Source of the DNA: Candidatus Azambacteria bacterium
Lineage (GTDB): Bacteria; Patescibacteriota; Minisyncoccia; UBA10092
Assembly: GCA_016213445.1 (NCBI GenBank)
Contig: JACRAJ010000001.1
Location: forward strand, 78,203 to 142,202
Reading direction: 5' to 3'
DNA: 64,000 bases
Shown: piece by piece, positions 3,580-26,876 of the stretch
How positions within the stretch are numbered: the stretch's first letter is position 1
How the letters are laid out: each line of letters opens with the position of its first letter
Notes under the pieces: model-generated
The model's input: the letters and a program-made list of their open reading frames with translations, nothing else
What the model was told of the DNA's origin: nothing
The model's database searches: none
Made by a program: the position numbers and the translations under genes

Positions 3580-4641
3580 CTAAAGATTCGCCTGTAATTC
3601 TTTGGGATTTAATGAATAAGCCAGGGCTGTTTCCGGCGCCACTTCGCCGCGGCGAACTAATTCGGCCAAACTGCGATTTAAAGAAATCATGCCGCTTTCA
3701 AGGGACGTTTCAATCACCAGGTCGATTTGATGAGTTTTATCCTCGCGAATCAGGTTGGAAACCGCATTATTCGCAAACATTATTTCAGCAGCCGGAATGC
3801 GGCCTCCCCGCAAACGGGGCAAAAGCCGCTGTGAAATCACCGCCGAAATGGTGTTTGCCAATTGAAATCTGATTTGATTCTGCTGATTTGGGGGAAAAAC
3901 ATCAATAATCCGGTCAATCGTTTGGCTGGCGCTGTTGGTATGCAGCGAAGAAAACACCAAATGGCCGGTTTCGGCCGCCGTGAGAGCGGCGGCGATAGTT
4001 TCCGGATCGCGCATCTCGCCGATCATAATCACATTAGGATCTTCTCGAAGAATCGAACTTAACGCATTATAAAAGCTTTTGGTGTCATTGCCAACTTCCC
4101 TTTGATTAACCAGAGATTTGTCGCCGACAAATAAATATTCAATAGGATCTTCAATGGCAATGATATGTTCGGCCCTCGAATGGTTGATTTCGTCGACGAT
4201 CGCGGCCAGCGTCGTCGATTTGCCGTGCCCCGACGGCCCCGTTAACATTACAAATCCCTGTTCCAACTTGGAAAGCTTGTGAAGCGCCGTCGGCAAATTG
4301 AGTTCTTCCACAGTCCTGATATTCGGAAGAATTAATCTCAAGGCGCTGCTTACAAATCCTTTTTCAAAGAAAACATTTACGCGAAAACGAGCTTTATCTT
4401 TGAAGGTGTATGAAAAATCAATTTCCTTTCTTTCAATGAAATTTTCTTTTCTGTCCCCCAAAATCTGATAAGCTAATTCTTCGGCATGCTGGGGAGTTAA
4501 AATGGAAAAATCATCAAGCGGCAAAAGAATACCGTCGACTCTAACGGTCGGCTTATAGCCAACGCTTAAATGCAAATCCGAAGCGTTGAGCTTTAACGTG
4601 CTTAAAAACAAATCTTCTAATTCTTGTTGGATGGTTGGCAT
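3580..4641 (-). CDS. pilT: twitching-motility retraction ATPase
   Basis: 353 aa. Walker A GPSGHGKST, IEDPIEY and GEMRD motifs, and no N-terminal GspE-N domain. Confidence 0.9.
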   Translation of the reverse strand: MPTIQQELEDLFLSTLKLNASDLHLSVGYKPTVRVDGILLPLDDFSILTPQHAEELAYQILGDRKENFIERKEIDFSYTFKDKARFRVNVFFEKGFVSSALRLILPNIRTVEELNLPTALHKLSKLEQGFVMLTGPSGHGKSTTLAAIVDEINHSRAEHIIAIEDPIEYLFVGDKSLVNQREVGNDTKSFYNALSSILREDPNVIMIGEMRDPETIAAALTAAETGHLVFSSLHTNSASQTIDRIIDVFPPNQQNQIRFQLANTISAVISQRLLPRLRGGRIPAAEIMFANNAVSNLIREDKTHQIDLVIETSLESGMISLNRSLAELVRRGEVAPETALAYSLNPKELQANL

Positions 4642-4721
4642 ATTTTAAATTTAAAGTTTAAATATTAAAATATTAAAATGTGAAAATAAAGAATTTAAAT
4701 GCTAAATTTACTCTAAAAAAA

Positions 4722-6281
4722 TCATTCTTTCGCGTTGACGCTGACAACCTGTAGTAATTCTTCGAAACCGATTATGCCTTCCAAAACTTTGTTAATACCG
4801 TCTTGGAACATAGTTACCATCCCCTGCCTTTTGGATTCCCCCAAAATCTTGGATTCGCTGGGCTCCGTTATGATTATATCACTAAGTTGGGGGGTTATCT
4901 CTAAAATTTCAAAAACCGCAATTCTTCCCTTGGTGCCCTTGTTGCCGCACTTGGGACAGCCTTGGGCTTTAAAAATCTTAAAGCTTTCCTTTTTTATTTT
5001 CGGACGCGACTGCTCGGGCATTGTCTCAATAGCATCCATGATTATTTTTTTCACGCTCTCCGGCGGATCCGCTTCCGTTTTGCAATCCGGACACAATCTC
5101 TTGACCAAACGCTGCGCCAAAGCCACGTTGAGCGCCGACGGTAAAAGAAACGGCTCAACGCCCATATCTATTAAACGCGGAATGACGCCAATGGCGTTAT
5201 TGGTGTGAAGCGTTGATAAAACCAGGTGGCCGGTCAAAGCCGATTGAACCGCCAAGCCCGCGGTTTCCGAATCGCGCATTTCTCCGACAACGATAATATT
5301 GGGATCTTGGCGCAGAATTTGGCGAAGCCCGCTGGCAAAAGTGTATCCTAATTCCGGCCTGATCTGCGATTGGTTCACGCCATCGACATAATATTCAACC
5401 GGATCTTCCAAACTGACGATATTCACCGCATCGGTGTTTAAAATCTGCAAAATACCGTAAATGGTGGTTGATTTTCCCGAACCGGTGGGGCCGGTCATTA
5501 AAATCATGCCAAAAGGCTTTTTAATGCCCCGTTCTATAACTTCAAGATTGCGGCCGACAATTCCCAATTCCGGCAAAGTTTTTAAACCGATGGTCGGGTC
5601 TAAAATTCTCAAAGCCGCTTTCTCGCCCCGCGCCGTCGGCAAAACCGATATTCTCAAATCAACTTCTTTTTCCCCGACTTTGGCGGTAAAACGGCCGTCT
5701 TGAGGCCGCCGCGTTTCATCGATTTGCAGATTCGAAAGAATTTTGATGCGGGAAATAATGGCCGGAGTGATTTCCACCGGCAGAACCACAACCGTTTGAA
5801 GCGCGCCGTCAAGGCGAAAACGAACGCGAAGCTTTCTTAGCGTTGGTTCAATATGGATATCGGAAGCCCTGGATTCAATGCCGTGCTTTAAAATCGTTTC
5901 GACCATCCGAATTATCGGCGCCTCCTGTTCTCTTTTGCCTTTTAATACTTCGGGCGGACCCACTTTTTCTTGCGCCAATTCTTTTCTCAATCCTTCAAGC
6001 GCCTCGCTGACTTCCTCCCTTAATCCGGCATACTGCTCCATCAATTTAGACCATGTCTCCTCGCTAATTTTAAAAACCCGCGCCGCGAGGTTGTTGCGAG
6101 AAGCTAAAAAATTAATAGCTTCTTGAGCTTTGACATCGTCGGGATTTACCAAGCCGACGTCTAAAACATTGTCGGACAAGGCCAAGGGAATCATCTTATA
6201 ATGCCTGGCCGAATCTTCGGGGATTAAAACCAAAACATCAGGCGGAATTTTACTTTCTTGATTAATGGGCGAATTTGGCAT
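4722..6281 (-). CDS. pilB: type IV pilus assembly ATPase (GspE/PilB family)
   Basis: N-terminal T2SSE-N-like domain, Walker A GPTGSGKST, GEMRD, and a tetracysteine CPDC...CPKC. Confidence 0.9.
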   Translation of the reverse strand: MPNSPINQESKIPPDVLVLIPEDSARHYKMIPLALSDNVLDVGLVNPDDVKAQEAINFLASRNNLAARVFKISEETWSKLMEQYAGLREEVSEALEGLRKELAQEKVGPPEVLKGKREQEAPIIRMVETILKHGIESRASDIHIEPTLRKLRVRFRLDGALQTVVVLPVEITPAIISRIKILSNLQIDETRRPQDGRFTAKVGEKEVDLRISVLPTARGEKAALRILDPTIGLKTLPELGIVGRNLEVIERGIKKPFGMILMTGPTGSGKSTTIYGILQILNTDAVNIVSLEDPVEYYVDGVNQSQIRPELGYTFASGLRQILRQDPNIIVVGEMRDSETAGLAVQSALTGHLVLSTLHTNNAIGVIPRLIDMGVEPFLLPSALNVALAQRLVKRLCPDCKTEADPPESVKKIIMDAIETMPEQSRPKIKKESFKIFKAQGCPKCGNKGTKGRIAVFEILEITPQLSDIIITEPSESKILGESKRQGMVTMFQDGINKVLEGIIGFEELLQVVSVNAKE

Positions 6282-16258: not shown

Positions 16259-16345
16259 GGAGGCGTGGCAGAGCGGCTTAATGCAGCATCCTGCTAAGAT
16301 GTTGTGTCCGAAAGGGCACCGGAGGTTCGAATCCTCCCGCCTCCG
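16259..16345 (+). tRNA. tRNA-Ser (anticodon GCU), type II long variable arm
   Basis: Hand-folded: acceptor ggaggcg/cgcctcc, anticodon loop CT-GCT-AA, variable arm gtgtccgaaagggcacc, T-loop ggaggttcgaatcctcc. Confidence 0.9.
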
Positions 16346-16409
16346 CAGACAACATTTTTTATCGAGAGACCGCCCCGATCGAGGCGGTTGCGAGACAAAA
16401 ACAATAAGC

Positions 16410-20232: not shown

Positions 20233-21804
20233 TTATATTGGTTTAAAGTGAAAAATTATTTCTGAATACGGATTGCGATCTCGCTCTGTCCGATTCAACA
20301 CAGGCCGTTTAAATTGATTTACAATTCTCATTCCCGACTTCTCTGCAATTTCGGGATAAAGATTATATTTATCATTTGCCACGAGAAAAACATCAAAATC
20401 GTTTTTTAGATATTGTTTACAATTATTTAACACATCCGCAATACCTTGCGCGTATAACCGGCGCGCTTCCAATCCTTGCCCCTTGTAAAGCGGGCCAATC
20501 TCTAAGTCATCTTTACGCTTAAATCCGAGTAGATCGTAAGCATAAGCATGTTGTTCGTGATAATCAATTTGTCCGACATACGGAGGCGAGCAGAAAATAC
20601 CTGCTATTTTTTGATTTTTTAATATTTTAGAAAATTCGGGATTTTGTTCTTCTATTTTTTCAAAAATATTTATAGTCCTTGAATCACCCGCTAAAATAGA
20701 ATAATGAACCGGTTTTCGTAATCTACTAAATTCTATAATTCTACTTAAAGTGTCAAAAGCATAACGATTCAGCATGGTCGCGATGGAGAAAAGCGGCTTA
20801 CATATTTTTTTGTGCTTGTAGCAGTAATAAGTTGTCAGTTGGGGCACTTTGAGAGTCGCTAAATCGCTGTGCGTAGTAGCGCGACATGATCTGATTGTTC
20901 TGCTCAAAATTAAAGCGAGAATTTTTCGTGTTTTTATGTCTTTCTCTTGTCTTATTGTCTTAAAAACATGATCAATTTCTTTGCGCGCGTTTTCTATAAA
21001 CCACTTATCAAGAAATGATAAAGATTTATCCTGCTTTAATTTAATTGAGTATTTCTTGAGTAGTTTTTGATAAATAGGCAAAAATTCTCTTTCTTTCTCT
21101 ATGGCAAATTTATTTTCATCAAAGCTTTTTTGATTAACTTTATATTTGAAGCCATGCCCCGGAAAGTGCACCGAGTTAAATTTGGCAAGTTCAGTCAAAA
21201 GTTCATTTTCAAAATCCTTAATTTTATTGTCATGTTCAAAAGAATTAAGCGAAGCAAGCATTTTTTTAACCGCTTGCTGTAAATATTCATAATCATAATG
21301 CGCCGCCTTACAACTTGCGATCATACAATTAAATTCTGAAACATCTATACCTATAGAATGGATACCTGTTTCAAGCGATTGGATAATAGTTGTCCCAGAG
21401 CCTAAAAATGGGTCTAAAACAATATCCCCGGGTTTAAAATATGTTTCTTTTTTGAAATTGTCAGTATGAGTGTCTATAAAATATTCAACAAGTTGAGGAA
21501 TATATTTACCCTTATATGGGTGTAGTCGATGAACATGCTTTGTAGTATCTACTTCTTTCAAATTATCAAAAGAAAGCGTCCAATTTAAATCATTTCCGAG
21601 CCTTTCTTTCCAACTAATCTCCCTGCTTCTGTATGAATCATAATATTTTTTCAAATCATTTAAATCAACAAGTGTTGAACCATTTCCTCCATGTTTTTTT
21701 ACTTTTCCATATTGAACTAAATAAGAAATATTTGTAGGTAATACTTCTTTATTAAGAAGCGCGGAAGCCCATTTTGATGCCTCAAATATAGACACTAAAT
21801 TCAT
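20233..21804 (-). CDS. DNA methyltransferase, alpha-class order (motif I before motif IV), SPPY type (N4-C or N6-A)
   Basis: DPFLGSGTT (AdoMet motif I) near aa 140 and IFCSPPYVGQIDY (motif IV) near aa 405. Confidence 0.8.
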   Translation of the reverse strand: MNLVSIFEASKWASALLNKEVLPTNISYLVQYGKVKKHGGNGSTLVDLNDLKKYYDSYRSREISWKERLGNDLNWTLSFDNLKEVDTTKHVHRLHPYKGKYIPQLVEYFIDTHTDNFKKETYFKPGDIVLDPFLGSGTTIIQSLETGIHSIGIDVSEFNCMIASCKAAHYDYEYLQQAVKKMLASLNSFEHDNKIKDFENELLTELAKFNSVHFPGHGFKYKVNQKSFDENKFAIEKEREFLPIYQKLLKKYSIKLKQDKSLSFLDKWFIENARKEIDHVFKTIRQEKDIKTRKILALILSRTIRSCRATTHSDLATLKVPQLTTYYCYKHKKICKPLFSIATMLNRYAFDTLSRIIEFSRLRKPVHYSILAGDSRTINIFEKIEEQNPEFSKILKNQKIAGIFCSPPYVGQIDYHEQHAYAYDLLGFKRKDDLEIGPLYKGQGLEARRLYAQGIADVLNNCKQYLKNDFDVFLVANDKYNLYPEIAEKSGMRIVNQFKRPVLNRTERDRNPYSEIIFHFKPI

Positions 21805-22007
21805 ATAAATATTATATCTCAATTTAAAAATTTAAAAAACCTCCAACCGACCCCCATCAAATCGAGCCCTGGAAAGATCGCCTGAAAAGCCCTACAATGC
21901 TTGTATAAGTAAAGTTCTAGAGCGACACACACCGCAGACGATTTTTGCTATCGAGAACCGACTCACTGATGACGTTAGTGAGACCGTGACGCTCGATGCG
22001 AAAACAA

Positions 22008-22044
22008 AATAATACAGCAGAAAAATCTGCTGTATTATTTTTTC
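22008..22044. terminator. bidirectional 13-bp stem terminator
   Basis: aataatacagcag-aaaaat-ctgctgtattatt flanked by A/T runs. Confidence 0.6.
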
Positions 22045-22287: not shown

Positions 22288-22306
22288 GGAAGGGTGGCAG
22301 AGCGGA
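22288..22306 (+). pseudogene. displaced 5' fragment of a tRNA-Ser gene
   Basis: ggaagggtggcagagcgga combines the acceptor of the tRNA at 22806 with the D-arm tggcagagcgg of the tRNA at 16259. No anticodon or T arm follows. Confidence 0.6.
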
Positions 22307-22329
22307 CTGGTTTATAGTATACTGGTTAA

Positions 22330-22842
22330 GTGGTCGAGTTGTATAAAAGAAAACCAAATACTAATTGTTTTATCTGCAACAAACCTATTTACAGAAGACC
22401 CTGTGAAATGCAGAAAAACAAAGGACGAGTCTTTTGTAATGCAATTTGTTATGGCATCTCTTGTAGAAAAGAGAATCCTTGTGTAATTTGCGGTAAATTA
22501 ATCTTATCGGGATTGAACAAAAAAACTTGCAGCAGAAGTTGCGCAAATAAACACAGGACGGGGATTAAATACAAAATTAATAGACCAAAAGATAAGGTTA
22601 TATCACAACGAGCTTTAAAAATTAGATTATTAAAAAATAGAGGGAAAAGTTGTGAACGTTGCAACTATGATAAATATGAGATATTGCAAGTCCACCATAA
22701 AAATAGAAACAAAAATGATAATAATATCGATAATCTTGAACTTATTTGCCCAAACTGTCATTTTGAGGAACATTTTTTGGAAAAAAGCTGGTTGAAAAAT
22801 TTTAAGGAAGGGTCGGATAGCGGTTTATTCCACCGCACTTGA
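22330..22842 (+). CDS. HNH endonuclease (free-standing, homing-type) whose 3' end runs 37 nt into tRNA-Ser
   Basis: Multiple CxxC zinc-ribbon pairs and the HNH core EILQVHHKNRNKNDNNIDNLELICPNCH. The start codon is uncertain (GTG/TTG). Confidence 0.75.
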   Translation: MVELYKRKPNTNCFICNKPIYRRPCEMQKNKGRVFCNAICYGISCRKENPCVICGKLILSGLNKKTCSRSCANKHRTGIKYKINRPKDKVISQRALKIRLLKNRGKSCERCNYDKYEILQVHHKNRNKNDNNIDNLELICPNCHFEEHFLEKSWLKNFKEGSDSGLFHRT

Positions 22843-22893
22843 AATGCGGCGTCCCGAAAGGGACCGTGGGTTCGAATCCCACCCCTTCCGCCA
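22806..22893 (+). tRNA. tRNA-Ser (anticodon UGA), CCA encoded
   Basis: Acceptor ggaaggg/cccttcc, anticodon stem-loop ccgca-CTTGAAA-tgcgg, variable arm cgtcccgaaagggacc, T arm gtgggttcgaatcccac, then g-cca. Confidence 0.9.
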
Positions 22894-23307: not shown

Positions 23308-23331
23308 CCGCCTTGCAGAAAGGCGGTTTTT
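23308..23331 (+). terminator. rho-independent terminator
   Basis: ccgcctt-gcaga-aaggcgg followed by ttttt. Confidence 0.65.
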
Positions 23332-23350
23332 GTTGTACAATTTTCAGATT

Positions 23351-24838
23351 ATGCCAAACGCGGAAAATAAAAATTTAATTACCCGACCGCCCGTTGTGGT
23401 TATAATGGGCCACGTTGACCATGGCAAAACCAAACTGCTCGACTACATTCGAAAAACTGCTGTCGCCGAGCGCGAAGCCGGCGGCATTACCCAGCACATC
23501 GGCGCTTACGAAATAATCCATAAAAATCGAAAAATCACTTTTTTGGACACGCCGGGCCACGAAGCTTTTTCAAAACTGCGAGGCCGCGGCGCCAAAGCGG
23601 CGGATATCGCCGTGCTTGTCATTGCCGCCGACGACGGCATAAAGCCTCAAACCCTTGAAGCCCTGCAGCACATAAAAACGGCGAATTTGCCGTTCATCGT
23701 AGCAATAAATAAAATAGACAAACCCGGAGCCAATCCCGAAAAGGTAAAAAAAGAACTGGCTGAAAATGACGTTTTGGTTGAATCATGGGGCGGCAAAATT
23801 CCTTCGGTGGAAATTTCCGCGAAAGAAGGCACAAATATCAATGAACTTTTAAACCTTATAGAACTGCTGGCGGATTTGAGCGAACTGAAAGCCGATCCAA
23901 GCAAAAACGCGGAAGGCATAGTTATTGAAACGCATCTCGACCCGCGGCGCGGAATAGTCGCCTCGCTTCTCATTTTAAACGGAACGTTGAAAACCGGTAA
24001 TTATATTCTATCCGGCGAAGCTTCGGGAAAAATAAAAATACTTGAAGATTTCAGGGGTGAAAAAATAAAAAGCGCGTCGTTTTCTTCTCCGGTTTTGATG
24101 ACCGGCTTCGCCGCGTTGCCGATTGTCGGAGAAAAATTCGCCGCTTCCGAAATTCCTTTTTCTGCGGCTTTAAAAATCGCAAAAAAAATCGGCGAATACA
24201 TCGGCGAATCTTTTGGCGCCGAAATGAAAACCGGCGTTAATTTGGTGAAAATAATAATCAAAGCCGATGTGCAAAGCTCGGCTGAAGCGCTGAAAGAAAG
24301 CTTGGAAAAAATTCCGCTGGAAAACGGCGCCGTAAAAATCATCAAATCCGAAACCGGAAATGTTAATGAAAGCGATTTTAAAATGGCCGATTTAAGCGAC
24401 GCGCTGATTATCGCTTTTAACGTGAAAACCGACGCCGCAATGCCCTATATCGCCGAAAAACAGAAAGAAAATTTAATTTCGGGAAATATTATTTACGATG
24501 TTCTGGACAGGGTAAAGGTTATAATTGAAAAAAAATTAAAACCGAAAATTGAACGCGAAGAAACCGGAAGATTAAACGTTTTGGCGGTTTTCAGGCAAGA
24601 AAAAAATCGCCAGGTTTTAGGCGGAAAAGTTGTTTCGGGCGAAATAGTAAAGGGAACGCGAACGGAAATTTTGAGAAACGAAACTATAATCGGCCAAGGG
24701 CGCATAATAAGTTTGCAATCGGACAAAAAAGAAACCGGAAAGGTTGAAGCCGGCCGCGAAGCCGGCCTTGCCGTTGATTTCGGCGAACCGAAAATCGCCG
24801 CCGGCGACACGCTTATCTTTTTCAAGAAAATGCAATAA
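23351..24838 (+). CDS. infB: translation initiation factor IF-2 (short form)
   Basis: [25 protein letters not shown] and NKID G-domain motifs, with the C-terminal domains present. Confidence 0.95.
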
Positions 24839-26181: not shown

Positions 26182-26253
26182 GGCCTGGTAGCCAAGTGGT
26201 AAGGCGAGGGTCTGCAAAACCCTTATACGTGGGTTCAATTCCCACCCAGGCCT
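26182..26253 (+). tRNA. tRNA-Cys (anticodon GCA)
   Basis: Acceptor ggcctgg/ccaggcc, anticodon stem-loop agggt-CTGCAAA-accct, T arm gtgggttcaattcccac. Confidence 0.9.
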
Positions 26254-26320
26254 CTCTTATATCGGCAAACGCAATTTAAATGATTTGATTTTGTGTCTAC
26301 CATTTGATATAATTTTCTTA

Positions 26321-26791
26321 ATGAAAAGAAGATCTTGGACCGAAAAACAATTAAAAAACGCAGTTAAAAATTCTTTTAGTTATAGACAAGTTTTAACTAA
26401 ACTAAATTTGCGCGAAGCAGGCGGAAACTACGCTCAAATAAAAAGATATATTAGAGAGTTTGAATTGGATATAAAACATTTTAAAGGACGAGGTTGGAAT
26501 TTGGGAATGCGAGGCATAGGAATACCCCGAATACCTTTAGAAAAAATTTTAGTTAAGAACAGTAATTTTCAAAGTTTTAAGTTGAAAAAAAGATTATTTG
26601 CCGCTGATTTAAAACCTAAAAATTGCGAGGAATGCGGATGGTCGCAAAGAACAGCTGATGGTTATTTACCTTTGGAATTAGATCATATCAACGGCGATCA
26701 TTACGATAATCGGATAGATAATCTAAGAGTTTTATGTCCTAATTGCCATAGTTTAAAACCAACACATCGTGGTAGGATTAGAAAGATTTAA
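26321..26791 (+). CDS. HNH endonuclease (homing-type) ending immediately before tRNA-Leu
   Basis: N-terminal WTEKQLKNAVKNSFSYRQVLTKLNL DNA-binding-like module and HNH core LELDHINGDHYDNRIDNLRVLCPNCH. Confidence 0.8.
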   Translation: MKRRSWTEKQLKNAVKNSFSYRQVLTKLNLREAGGNYAQIKRYIREFELDIKHFKGRGWNLGMRGIGIPRIPLEKILVKNSNFQSFKLKKRLFAADLKPKNCEECGWSQRTADGYLPLELDHINGDHYDNRIDNLRVLCPNCHSLKPTHRGRIRKI

Positions 26792-26875
26792 GGACGAGTG
26801 GCGGAATCGGTATACGCGCAGCACTTAAAATGCTGTGGATTAACATCCTTGAGGGTTCGAGTCCCTCCTCGTCCA
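26792..26875 (+). tRNA. tRNA-Leu (anticodon UAA), type II
   Basis: Acceptor ggacgag/ctcgtcc, anticodon stem-loop cagca-CTTAAAA-tgctg, T arm gagggttcgagtccctc. Starts the base after the HNH stop codon. Confidence 0.9.
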
Positions 26876-26876
26876 C

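Follow-up and report, generated by a model that had tools for sequence, protein, structure and literature searches.

Why does a complete tRNA-Ser(UGA) gene share its first 37 nt with an HNH endonuclease gene, beyond whose other end lies a second, partial copy of the tRNA 5′ end? The locus that raises this question occupies positions 22,288–22,893 of a 64,000 nt stretch of DNA from Candidatus Azambacteria bacterium (contig JACRAJ010000001.1), which is hereafter called the window and to which all coordinates refer unless another locus (L followed by a number) is named. Our comparisons make it likely that a free-standing HNH homing-endonuclease cassette has invaded the tRNA-Ser(UGA) gene of this segment. 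With the same likelihood, the cassette would consist of a compact extended −10 promoter and a gene for a zinc-ribbon/HNH protein of 160–170 aa, to which a complete tRNA-Ser(UGA) gene with an altered D arm is directly joined.

Structure of the tRNA-Ser(UGA) locus

Direct reading of the sequence identifies a 19 nt fragment, ggaagggtggcagagcgga, at 22,288–22,306, which is the secure part of a displaced 5′ stub of a native, canonical tRNA-Ser(UGA); the resemblance to a tRNA probably extends up to around 22,310, and the stub so delimited (22,288–22,310, + strand) comprises the 5′ strands of the acceptor and of the D stem, and the D loop. The 23 nt that separate the 19 nt fragment from the open reading frame (ORF), at 22,307–22,329, include a conserved box that forms the left end of the cassette (22,311–22,329, + strand; family consensus TTTGTGGTATACTGGnTnA). 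The ORF itself (22,330–22,842 including the stop codon, + strand) starts with GTG and encodes 170 aa that match Pfam HNH_3 (26.3 bits) and HNH (24.5 bits), both above the respective cut-offs. It runs into an intact tRNA-Ser(UGA) gene of the cassette type at 22,806–22,893 (+ strand), called by ARAGORN and matching the full Rfam tRNA model (54.8 bits, model positions 1–71), with a non-canonical D arm, TCGGATAGCGGTTTATTCC. A first-pass annotation, made from the letters alone, had already proposed this succession of tRNA fragment, spacer, 170-codon HNH ORF and complete tRNA with a divergent D arm, and its coordinates agree with those from direct reading, ARAGORN, Rfam and Pfam.

The ORF and the tRNA gene overlap by 37 nt, such that tRNA nt 1–37 are used twice and the TGA stop codon of the ORF is the tRNA anticodon. 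The last 12 codons, KEGSDSGLFHRT, are indeed read from the tRNA, as first annotated; however, they are not limited to the acceptor and D arm, since the overlap continues through the 5′ strand of the anticodon stem into the anticodon.

The stub combines the 7 nt acceptor strand of the intact tRNA-Ser(UGA), to which it is identical, with a D-arm part, TGGCAGAGCGG, identical to that of the tRNA-Ser(GCU) gene at 16,259–16,346, which bears out the mixed composition initially attributed to it. Allowing up to three mismatches, the 18-mer of the stub was found solely at the stub and in the two real Ser tRNAs, and no chance copy appeared in 100 shuffles. Neither ARAGORN nor Rfam, the check by covariance models that had been suggested for this fragment, called a tRNA at the stub.

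The orthologous locus in other Azambacteria

The gene for IF-2, just downstream (23,330–24,838), points to a position within Candidatus Azambacteria or close to it and was used to find the orthologous tRNA-Ser(UGA) locus, upstream of IF-2, in relatives. Five loci are in a naive state, with a canonical tRNA-Ser(UGA) and without HNH gene (L181, L177, L179/L180, L092, and L093–L095); these are the empty sites in related genomes that the first-pass annotation had proposed to look for. L180 is a plain empty site, with a gene for a P-type ATPase beside the canonical tRNA. Two loci, the window and L007, hold an intact cassette plus a stub; in L089, all that is left of the HNH gene before a cassette-type tRNA is its final 45 nt, which encode LEKSWLKNITEK...; and L088, read as a loss of the gene, has no HNH gene, and its tRNA core is 100% identical to that of the window. 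There is, then, a presence/absence polymorphism with degenerate copies at one conserved site among Azambacteria loci. BLASTN homology between the window and L007 covers exactly 22,288–22,893 (606 nt, 82.9% identity), and the flanks of L007 are orthologous to those of L088 (84–90% nucleotide identity) and L180 (81%), as would be expected of an insertion.

The stub is the recipient's own 5′ end. The native tRNA of L181 starts with GGAAGGGTGGCAGAGCGG, whose nt 1–18 are identical to the window stub (18/18; 20/23 over a longer stretch), and its acceptor pair is that of the window tRNA. Likewise, 17/18 positions of the L007 stub agree with the native allele of L177, and the cross-comparisons give only 14–15/18. 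Conversely, the tRNA core in use in the window is 100% identical to the L088 and L007-type alleles and only around 78% identical to that of native L181.

In a tree of IF-2 sequences, the naive L181 groups with L088 and L089 in one tight clade (85–89% identity), in spite of their differing tRNA alleles. The IF-2 of the window is 77–78% identical to those of these three loci, yet its tRNA core is that of L088, and the cassette-type tRNA allele is thus incongruent with the IF-2 tree. This discordance affects nt 8–65, which are of the donor type (some HNH-linked tRNAs being canonical in the D arm). Judging from these identities, replacement would have affected almost all of the tRNA core, from nt 8 to around 65, and not the 5′ segment alone. 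The original proposal of a mobile HNH cassette inserted at the D-loop region is hence sustained by the empty, remnant and occupied loci, by the 18/18 match of the stub to L181 and by the incongruent allele, but its corollary that the cassette replaced just a 5′ segment of the tRNA needs to be amended.

At L087 (2,230–2,310) nucleotide identity to the window is 93% downstream, and homology ends exactly at the tRNA 3′ end (window 22,890). A short sequence there, gcGTTCGAtaaggCCG, is a possible remnant of a T loop and 3′ end; the tRNA-Ser(UGA) gene of this genome must be elsewhere, and the arrangement may be an assembly artefact.

Linkage of the HNH family to tRNA-Ser(UGA)

We retrieved 86 further loci with homologous HNH genes, 6 from genomes and 80 from metagenomes. 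A tRNA-Ser(UGA) gene lies directly downstream, on the same strand, in 6/6 genome and 78/80 metagenome loci, as well as in the window; the 84 informative loci besides the window include L043, where the tRNA consists of decayed remains. The apparent exceptions are three tRNAs cut by the contig end, the decayed tRNA of L043, and L040 and L071, whose contigs end inside the ORF. Among the informative loci, the linkage of this HNH family to tRNA-Ser(UGA) is exclusive. The distance from the stop codon to the tRNA ranges from −37 to +95 nt in all loci but L067, which has a premature ORF stop, with recurrent classes at −37 (the stop is the anticodon), −15 (the stop is a TAG at tRNA nt 13–15) and −1.

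In L043 (680–780), an intact HNH gene is followed by a tRNA-Ser(UGA) that lacks the 5′ acceptor and has a broken T arm, which reverses the usual order of decay. A divergent D arm was considered as an exclusive mark of HNH-linked tRNAs and holds only in part, since HNH-free loci share it and some HNH-linked tRNAs are canonical. The D arm TCGCATAG of the tRNA-Ser(GCU) from L092 is found elsewhere in HNH-linked tRNA-Ser(UGA). Between that tRNA-Ser(GCU) and the canonical tRNA-Ser(UGA), L092 carries two small ORFs (4,279–4,755; 68 and 86 aa) resembling a toxin-antitoxin pair.

Recurrence of the 5′ stubs

We searched for stubs as a strict tRNA-Ser D-arm motif following an acceptor-like 7-mer, at most 120 nt upstream of the HNH start and with a 12 nt exclusion. 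Six of the 76 distinct loci contain the motif, when only 0.22 would be expected judging from the remaining sequence of those loci (P ~1e-7). In the window, L007, L019 and L022 the stub sits against the box at an identical offset; in L004 and L069 it is 20–35 nt further from it. A seventh lineage, a Roizmanbacterium, shows the order tRNA-Cys, 4 nt, stub, box, HNH gene and tRNA-Ser(UGA). Every stub has a canonical D arm and ends within the D loop or at its 3′ edge, a breakpoint that is common to the seven lineages, and the intact tRNA beside it has a non-canonical D arm in the six motif-positive ones. Around 14 loci have instead a whole tRNA-Ser(GCU) gene 25–105 nt upstream of the HNH start, and most have unrelated sequence there. 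The stub is, consequently, a scar of some invasions and not an obligatory part of the cassette.

The conserved box preceding the HNH gene

Nearly all loci contain, directly 5′ of the start codon, a box with the consensus aTTTTTGTGGTATACTGGnTnA, followed by GTG nCT GAG. Its core, TGGTATACTGG, is 92–100% conserved in 67 distinct sequences despite the saturation of synonymous sites. The window copy, TAGTATACT, occurs once in the window and contains a −10-like hexamer, TATACT, at 22,318–22,323, 6 nt before the GTG, a spacing found in 67 loci; the TG of an extended −10 reads TAG in this copy. A promoter scan paired GTGGCA with TATACT, 18 nt apart (22,294–22,323). The box would fit an extended −10 promoter (TGnTATAAT-like) with a predicted transcription start on, or next to, the start codon, and so the mRNA would be leaderless. 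The same box is probably also a promoter for the tRNA, which would be co-transcribed with the HNH gene.

The beginning of the HNH gene itself resembles a tRNA: the consensus GGnTnAGTGnCTGAG of the start region (22,324–22,338 in the window, and the same position in L001–L086) matches around 11/15 positions of tRNA-Ser nt 1–15, GGAGRGGTGGCNGAG, and in L062 this region, GGAGGGGTGTCTGAG, includes the exact acceptor of its own tRNA. It is suggestive, no further, that the HNH start codon might descend from tRNA nt 7–9 of a much older stub.

The HNH protein and its relatives

The protein carries two CxxC...CxxxC zinc ribbons at its N terminus and an HNH (ββα-metal) domain at its C terminus, with a motif HH...N...CPNCH that is invariant in 18 sequences. 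In an AlphaFold2 model (predicted local distance difference test score, pLDDT, of 76), two N-terminal modules resemble zinc ribbons and are accompanied by a long helix and the HNH core. Conservation stops near residue 157 (...LEKSWLKN), and the tail, read from the tRNA, has its sequence set by it; the pLDDT of this tail (residues 158–170) is below 50. Fold (Foldseek) and sequence searches against solved structures retrieved generic HNH enzymes only (McrA, Cap5, T4 endonuclease VII and I-HmuI), with no specific homing-enzyme relative in the PDB. The protein matches PHROG HNH families, HNH domains alone were found in the Pfam search, with no GIY-YIG domain, and an exact-protein look-up returned no record.

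The family is large, with at least 1,178 homologous clusters (at 90% identity) that are 55–85% identical to each other. The named clusters are mostly from Patescibacteria (Roizmanbacteria, Pacebacteria, Parcubacteria, Paceibacterota and Patescibacteria group), and one is labelled Burkholderiales. Many homologs end in ...EGSDSGLFHRT or ...EGGVG, indicating that their ORFs also read into a tRNA. The tree of HNH proteins built by the unweighted pair group method with arithmetic mean, compared with the classes of tRNA D arm, is star-like. Even for the closest relative of the window gene, that of L007, the proportion of synonymous differences is 0.66 (dS ~1.5), with a dN of 0.09; synonymous sites are saturated in all other pairs, and dN/dS is around 0.05. 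Host proteins encoded at the HNH loci are 25–52% identical to their window counterparts, whereas the HNH proteins of those loci are 64–76% identical. The high identity of the HNH proteins across classes is due to strong constraint; recent horizontal spread, considered as its cause, is ruled out by the saturated synonymous sites. From these substitution patterns we infer that the family is old, extends across the Patescibacteria and is under strong purifying selection.

Distant relatives (26–55% identity) in viral contigs sit inside phage tRNA arrays. Those of L100, L102, L104, L105 and L130 are 26–46% identical and lie within dense arrays, with up to 22 tRNA genes in 8 kb. In three putatively viral IMG/VR contigs of 350–450 kb (L097, 3,740–4,460; L098 and L099, 3,900–4,522), relatives of 48–55% identity adjoin tRNA-Ser(GGA), and not tRNA-Ser(UGA); two of them, in L098 and L099, overlap it. 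These three loci also have a D-arm-like piece, TGCGTGAGTGGTTGA, upstream of a −10 box, TATATAAT, and L097 contains a degenerate tRNA-Ser(UGA)-like sequence that ARAGORN did not call.

A model for the probable invasion of tRNA-Ser(UGA)

We propose that the nuclease would nick or cut canonical tRNA-Ser genes that lack the cassette, at or close to the D loop, a position suggested by the breakpoint that the stubs have in common. The break would be repaired from a cassette-bearing copy, with the conserved tRNA body as the right-hand homology, and so most of the resident tRNA would be co-converted to the donor allele. In a transfer between lineages, with no homology upstream, the left end could join only through the first ~20 nt of the tRNA, and nt 1 to around 21 of the recipient would then be left as a dead stub before the cassette. 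Within a population, ordinary flank homology would suffice and no stub would arise, which would explain the ~90% of loci that lack it. Stubs and nuclease genes would decay later. After the invasion, the essential tRNA would probably depend on the promoter of the cassette. The run of the ORF into the tRNA may be a by-product of the tight fusion, given that an ORF end inside the tRNA is not conserved across the family; where it does occur, processing by RNase P would remove the stop codon of the ORF.

Several observations weigh against this model. Around 90% of the loci are without stub. Some eight HNH-linked tRNAs have canonical D arms, such that immunity through the D arm would not be general, and the tRNA-Ser(GCU) of L092 has the odd D arm TCGCATAG too. 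In the nearest relative, L087 (IF-2 95% identical), both tRNA-Ser(UGA) and the HNH gene are missing from this place, and synteny breaks off at the 3′ end of the tRNA. With ~20 nt of homology on the left, RecA-type repair would work near its lower limit. HNH loci were sampled through their protein, which favors intact genes. A dN/dS of around 0.05 with saturated dS denotes an old, strongly constrained family, as a function for the host would also produce. Finally, cleavage and mobility are themselves predictions from sequence comparisons.

Were the model correct, a free-standing nuclease gene would have a long-term homing site in an essential tRNA gene on the chromosomes of a major bacterial radiation, with the damage mended by the tRNA that the cassette brings and not by splicing. 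Alleles of tRNA-Ser(UGA) in Patescibacteria would be in part horizontally inherited, which would matter for tRNA-based phylogeny and for annotation, and homing elements would be seen to cross between genomes that share only a 90 nt conserved gene. The nuclease, of ~160 aa, would be a compact natural enzyme with a predicted, defined target in a tRNA gene. Likewise, ORFs overlapping tRNAs and 20 nt tRNA stubs would be real features in these genomes, of which annotators should be aware.

More tentatively, and with a probability that we place well below even, Patescibacteria may harbor a guild of homing cassettes that parasitize tRNA genes, comprising this HNH gene (HNH-1) at tRNA-Ser(UGA), a second one (HNH-2) at tRNA-Leu(UAA) and a LAGLIDADG ORF at tRNA-Cys. 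In such a guild, the Ser cassette would overwrite an essential tRNA with a nuclease-resistant allele under its own leaderless-mRNA promoter, and would thereby exert an addiction-like hold that leaves the host no clean way to lose it. This would explain why an apparently selfish gene is kept intact, with a dN/dS of around 0.05, across the radiation. A further role of the nuclease might be to cut DNA arriving from phages or competitors when this contains canonical tRNA-Ser genes.

Alternative explanations

The alternative that best survives, and which we nevertheless deem unlikely, is that of a domesticated resident gene, old and vertically inherited, with a role at the host level such as cutting foreign DNA with canonical tRNA-Ser genes or maintaining the tRNA gene; the stubs would then be by-products of local rearrangement or of gene conversion between tRNA-Ser alleles. 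The low dN/dS with saturated dS, an ORF that is intact in nearly all the sampled loci (the premature stop of L067 being the only one), the 92–100% conservation of the promoter box and the fixed location in several classes of Patescibacteria are all as expected from such a gene. Yet purifying selection this strong is equally expected for, and compatible with, a long-lived homing element, which leaves a host-level function a small share of the probability. Moreover, in the orthologous-locus sample, which is free of the bias towards intact genes, the gene is patchy, with two intact copies, one remnant, one cassette-type tRNA without HNH and five naive loci. Vertical inheritance is also at odds with the incongruence between the tRNA allele and the IF-2 tree, with stubs that match different native alleles depending on the lineage but share their breakpoint, and with the closest relatives outside the family being phage HNH endonucleases in tRNA arrays.

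It is still less probable that the stub is kept as a part of the promoter, with GTGGCA or TTGGCC as a −35-like element 18 nt before the −10, and moves along with the cassette, in which case it would not derive from the 5′ end of the recipient. The promoter scan did pair the GTGGCA of the stub with TATACT at that spacing, the offset is the same in four lineages, and the stub has stayed canonical-looking despite the dS of ~1.5 between the window and L007. However, in most loci that position is taken by sequence unrelated to the stub or by a different tRNA's 3′ end, and in L004 and L069 the stub is 20–35 nt further away; besides, an extended −10 promoter needs no −35. The origin of the stubs is also hard to reconcile with a travelling element, because the one in the window is identical at 18/18 positions to the native allele of relatives and that in L007 matches a different native allele. 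A role of the stub in the promoter is, in any case, compatible with the invasion by a homing cassette as a secondary use.

The locus could also be read as a single tRNA gene with a large D-loop intron, which we regard as extremely improbable; the stub would be its 5′ exon, and the intron would comprise the HNH ORF together with the repeated 5′ portion. The stub and the tRNA do have the same acceptor strand, and ARAGORN calls artificial hybrids of the stub with the 3′ part as tRNA-Ser, a test that is too lenient to discriminate. But the downstream tRNA is complete on its own, the GCA of the stub D stem would face TCC, with one mismatch in three pairs, the stub is upstream of a conserved promoter box, and ~90% of the loci have no stub. 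We rejected this reading because an Rfam search with E values up to 10 gave no match to group I or group II introns or other ribozymes, and ARAGORN with introns allowed reported the intact tRNA only; an intron-containing tRNA was the outcome that the first-pass annotation had named as contrary to its proposal, and Rfam gave no intron signature.

Finally, tRNA genes are common integration sites and the opposite strand just upstream encodes a DNA methyltransferase, but the scar of an integrase-type island or prophage at its attachment site is scarcely credible for a unit without integrase whose 606 nt shared with L007 hold the HNH ORF alone and whose repeat is the 5′, and not the 3′, end of a tRNA in non-identical copies, and so is chance resemblance with no match in 100 shuffles.

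Comparison with known mobile elements

The HNH domain of the protein, the lack of a match to intron families and the box 6 nt before the start are the features of a free-standing gene, and by analogy we present the cassette as a bacterial-chromosome counterpart, not a SegB relative, of the free-standing homing endonucleases from phage tRNA regions. The GIY-YIG enzyme SegB of phage T4 recognizes the conserved tRNA TψC motif and spreads together with neighboring tRNA genes (PMC2330249). As with SegB, the nuclease gene is outside any intron or intein and beside tRNA genes; the target of SegB includes a conserved tRNA motif, and its spread with neighboring tRNA sequence occurs by repair-driven gene conversion. 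Unlike segB, the cassette is in a bacterial chromosome, encodes an HNH enzyme with two zinc ribbons instead of a GIY-YIG one, and is tied to one tRNA species, with an ORF fused to and overlapping the tRNA, a displaced 5′ stub and the apparent replacement of an essential resident allele. SegB is the best characterized of the phage enzymes; cleavage by the cassette nuclease is a prediction. The distant HNH relatives in phage tRNA arrays are a further likeness to the enzymes of phage tRNA clusters. HNH nicking enzymes are encoded in the tRNA region of phage T5.

An architectural parallel is found in the mobile endonuclease ORFs (mORFs) of fungal mitochondria (Allomyces atp6; Glomus atp6, atp9, cox2 and nad3), whose insertion supplies a foreign substitute for the end of the gene and pushes the native end aside (PMC3630166). 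In both cases, an endonuclease ORF carries a foreign gene end, the displaced native end matches close relatives, and the ORF can be in phase with the gene. The hybrid gene typical of mORFs has its counterpart here, although as an architectural analogy only, in a stub that is 18/18 identical to L181 and a core in use that is ~78% identical to L181 and 100% to L088. Nevertheless, mORFs reside in mitochondrial protein genes, replace the 3′ end and encode LAGLIDADG or GIY-YIG enzymes, while the cassette affects a bacterial RNA gene, appears to replace the 5′ side and most of the core, and encodes an HNH enzyme.

Group I introns that carry homing endonuclease genes occur in bacterial tRNA genes (PMC3984707) and are reported in rRNA genes of Patescibacteria (Tsurumaki 2022, as cited in PMC10714607). 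They have in common with the cassette that a selfish endonuclease element uses a conserved RNA gene as homing site; however, the cassette has neither ribozyme nor splicing, function being restored by a duplicated or replaced gene segment, and its insertion is 5′ of the tRNA or around its D loop, and not in the anticodon loop. Integrase islands likewise target tRNA genes, restore the gene with a part of the tRNA and leave a partial tRNA copy, but the cassette differs from them in having no integrase, a duplicated 5′ instead of 3′ end, a size of ~0.5 kb and non-identical copies. In the literature searched, we found no description of this HNH family of Patescibacteria, in whose RNA genes the mobile endonuclease elements described are rRNA introns only; nor did we find an account of the arrangement, in keeping with the impression of novelty recorded on first annotation.

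Other nuclease genes and neighboring sequences

A second, different HNH gene (26,321–26,791; 156 aa; matches to Pfam HNH/HNH_3 and, at 2e-43, to phrog_10822) fills the 537 nt gap between tRNA-Cys (26,182–26,254) and tRNA-Leu(UAA) (26,792–26,876). Its stop codon abuts nt 1 of the tRNA-Leu, and it has its own TGATATAAT box at 26,305–26,313, 7 nt before the ATG. The tRNA-Leu(UAA) site shows no stub and an unchanged tRNA-Leu allele. In L088, L089 and L093 the two tRNA genes are 0–1 nt apart and constitute clean empty sites, and L177/L178 carry a copy of this second gene that is 79% identical. Another Azambacteria genome, L096, contains a LAGLIDADG ORF (5,401–6,033; Pfam LAGLIDADG_3, 4e-13) that runs 18 nt into tRNA-Cys(GCA) (6,016–6,089), and brings to three the types of nuclease gene joined to the 5′ side of a tRNA gene.

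Upstream of the tRNA-Ser(UGA) locus, a 16 bp terminator-like hairpin with a T run (22,006–22,041) stands at the end of the preceding + strand region. The methyltransferase gene just upstream of the stub (20,233–21,822, − strand) encodes an N6/N4 DNA methyltransferase of 529 aa and is missing from this position in the relatives examined, indicating that the left flank of the tRNA locus is variable.

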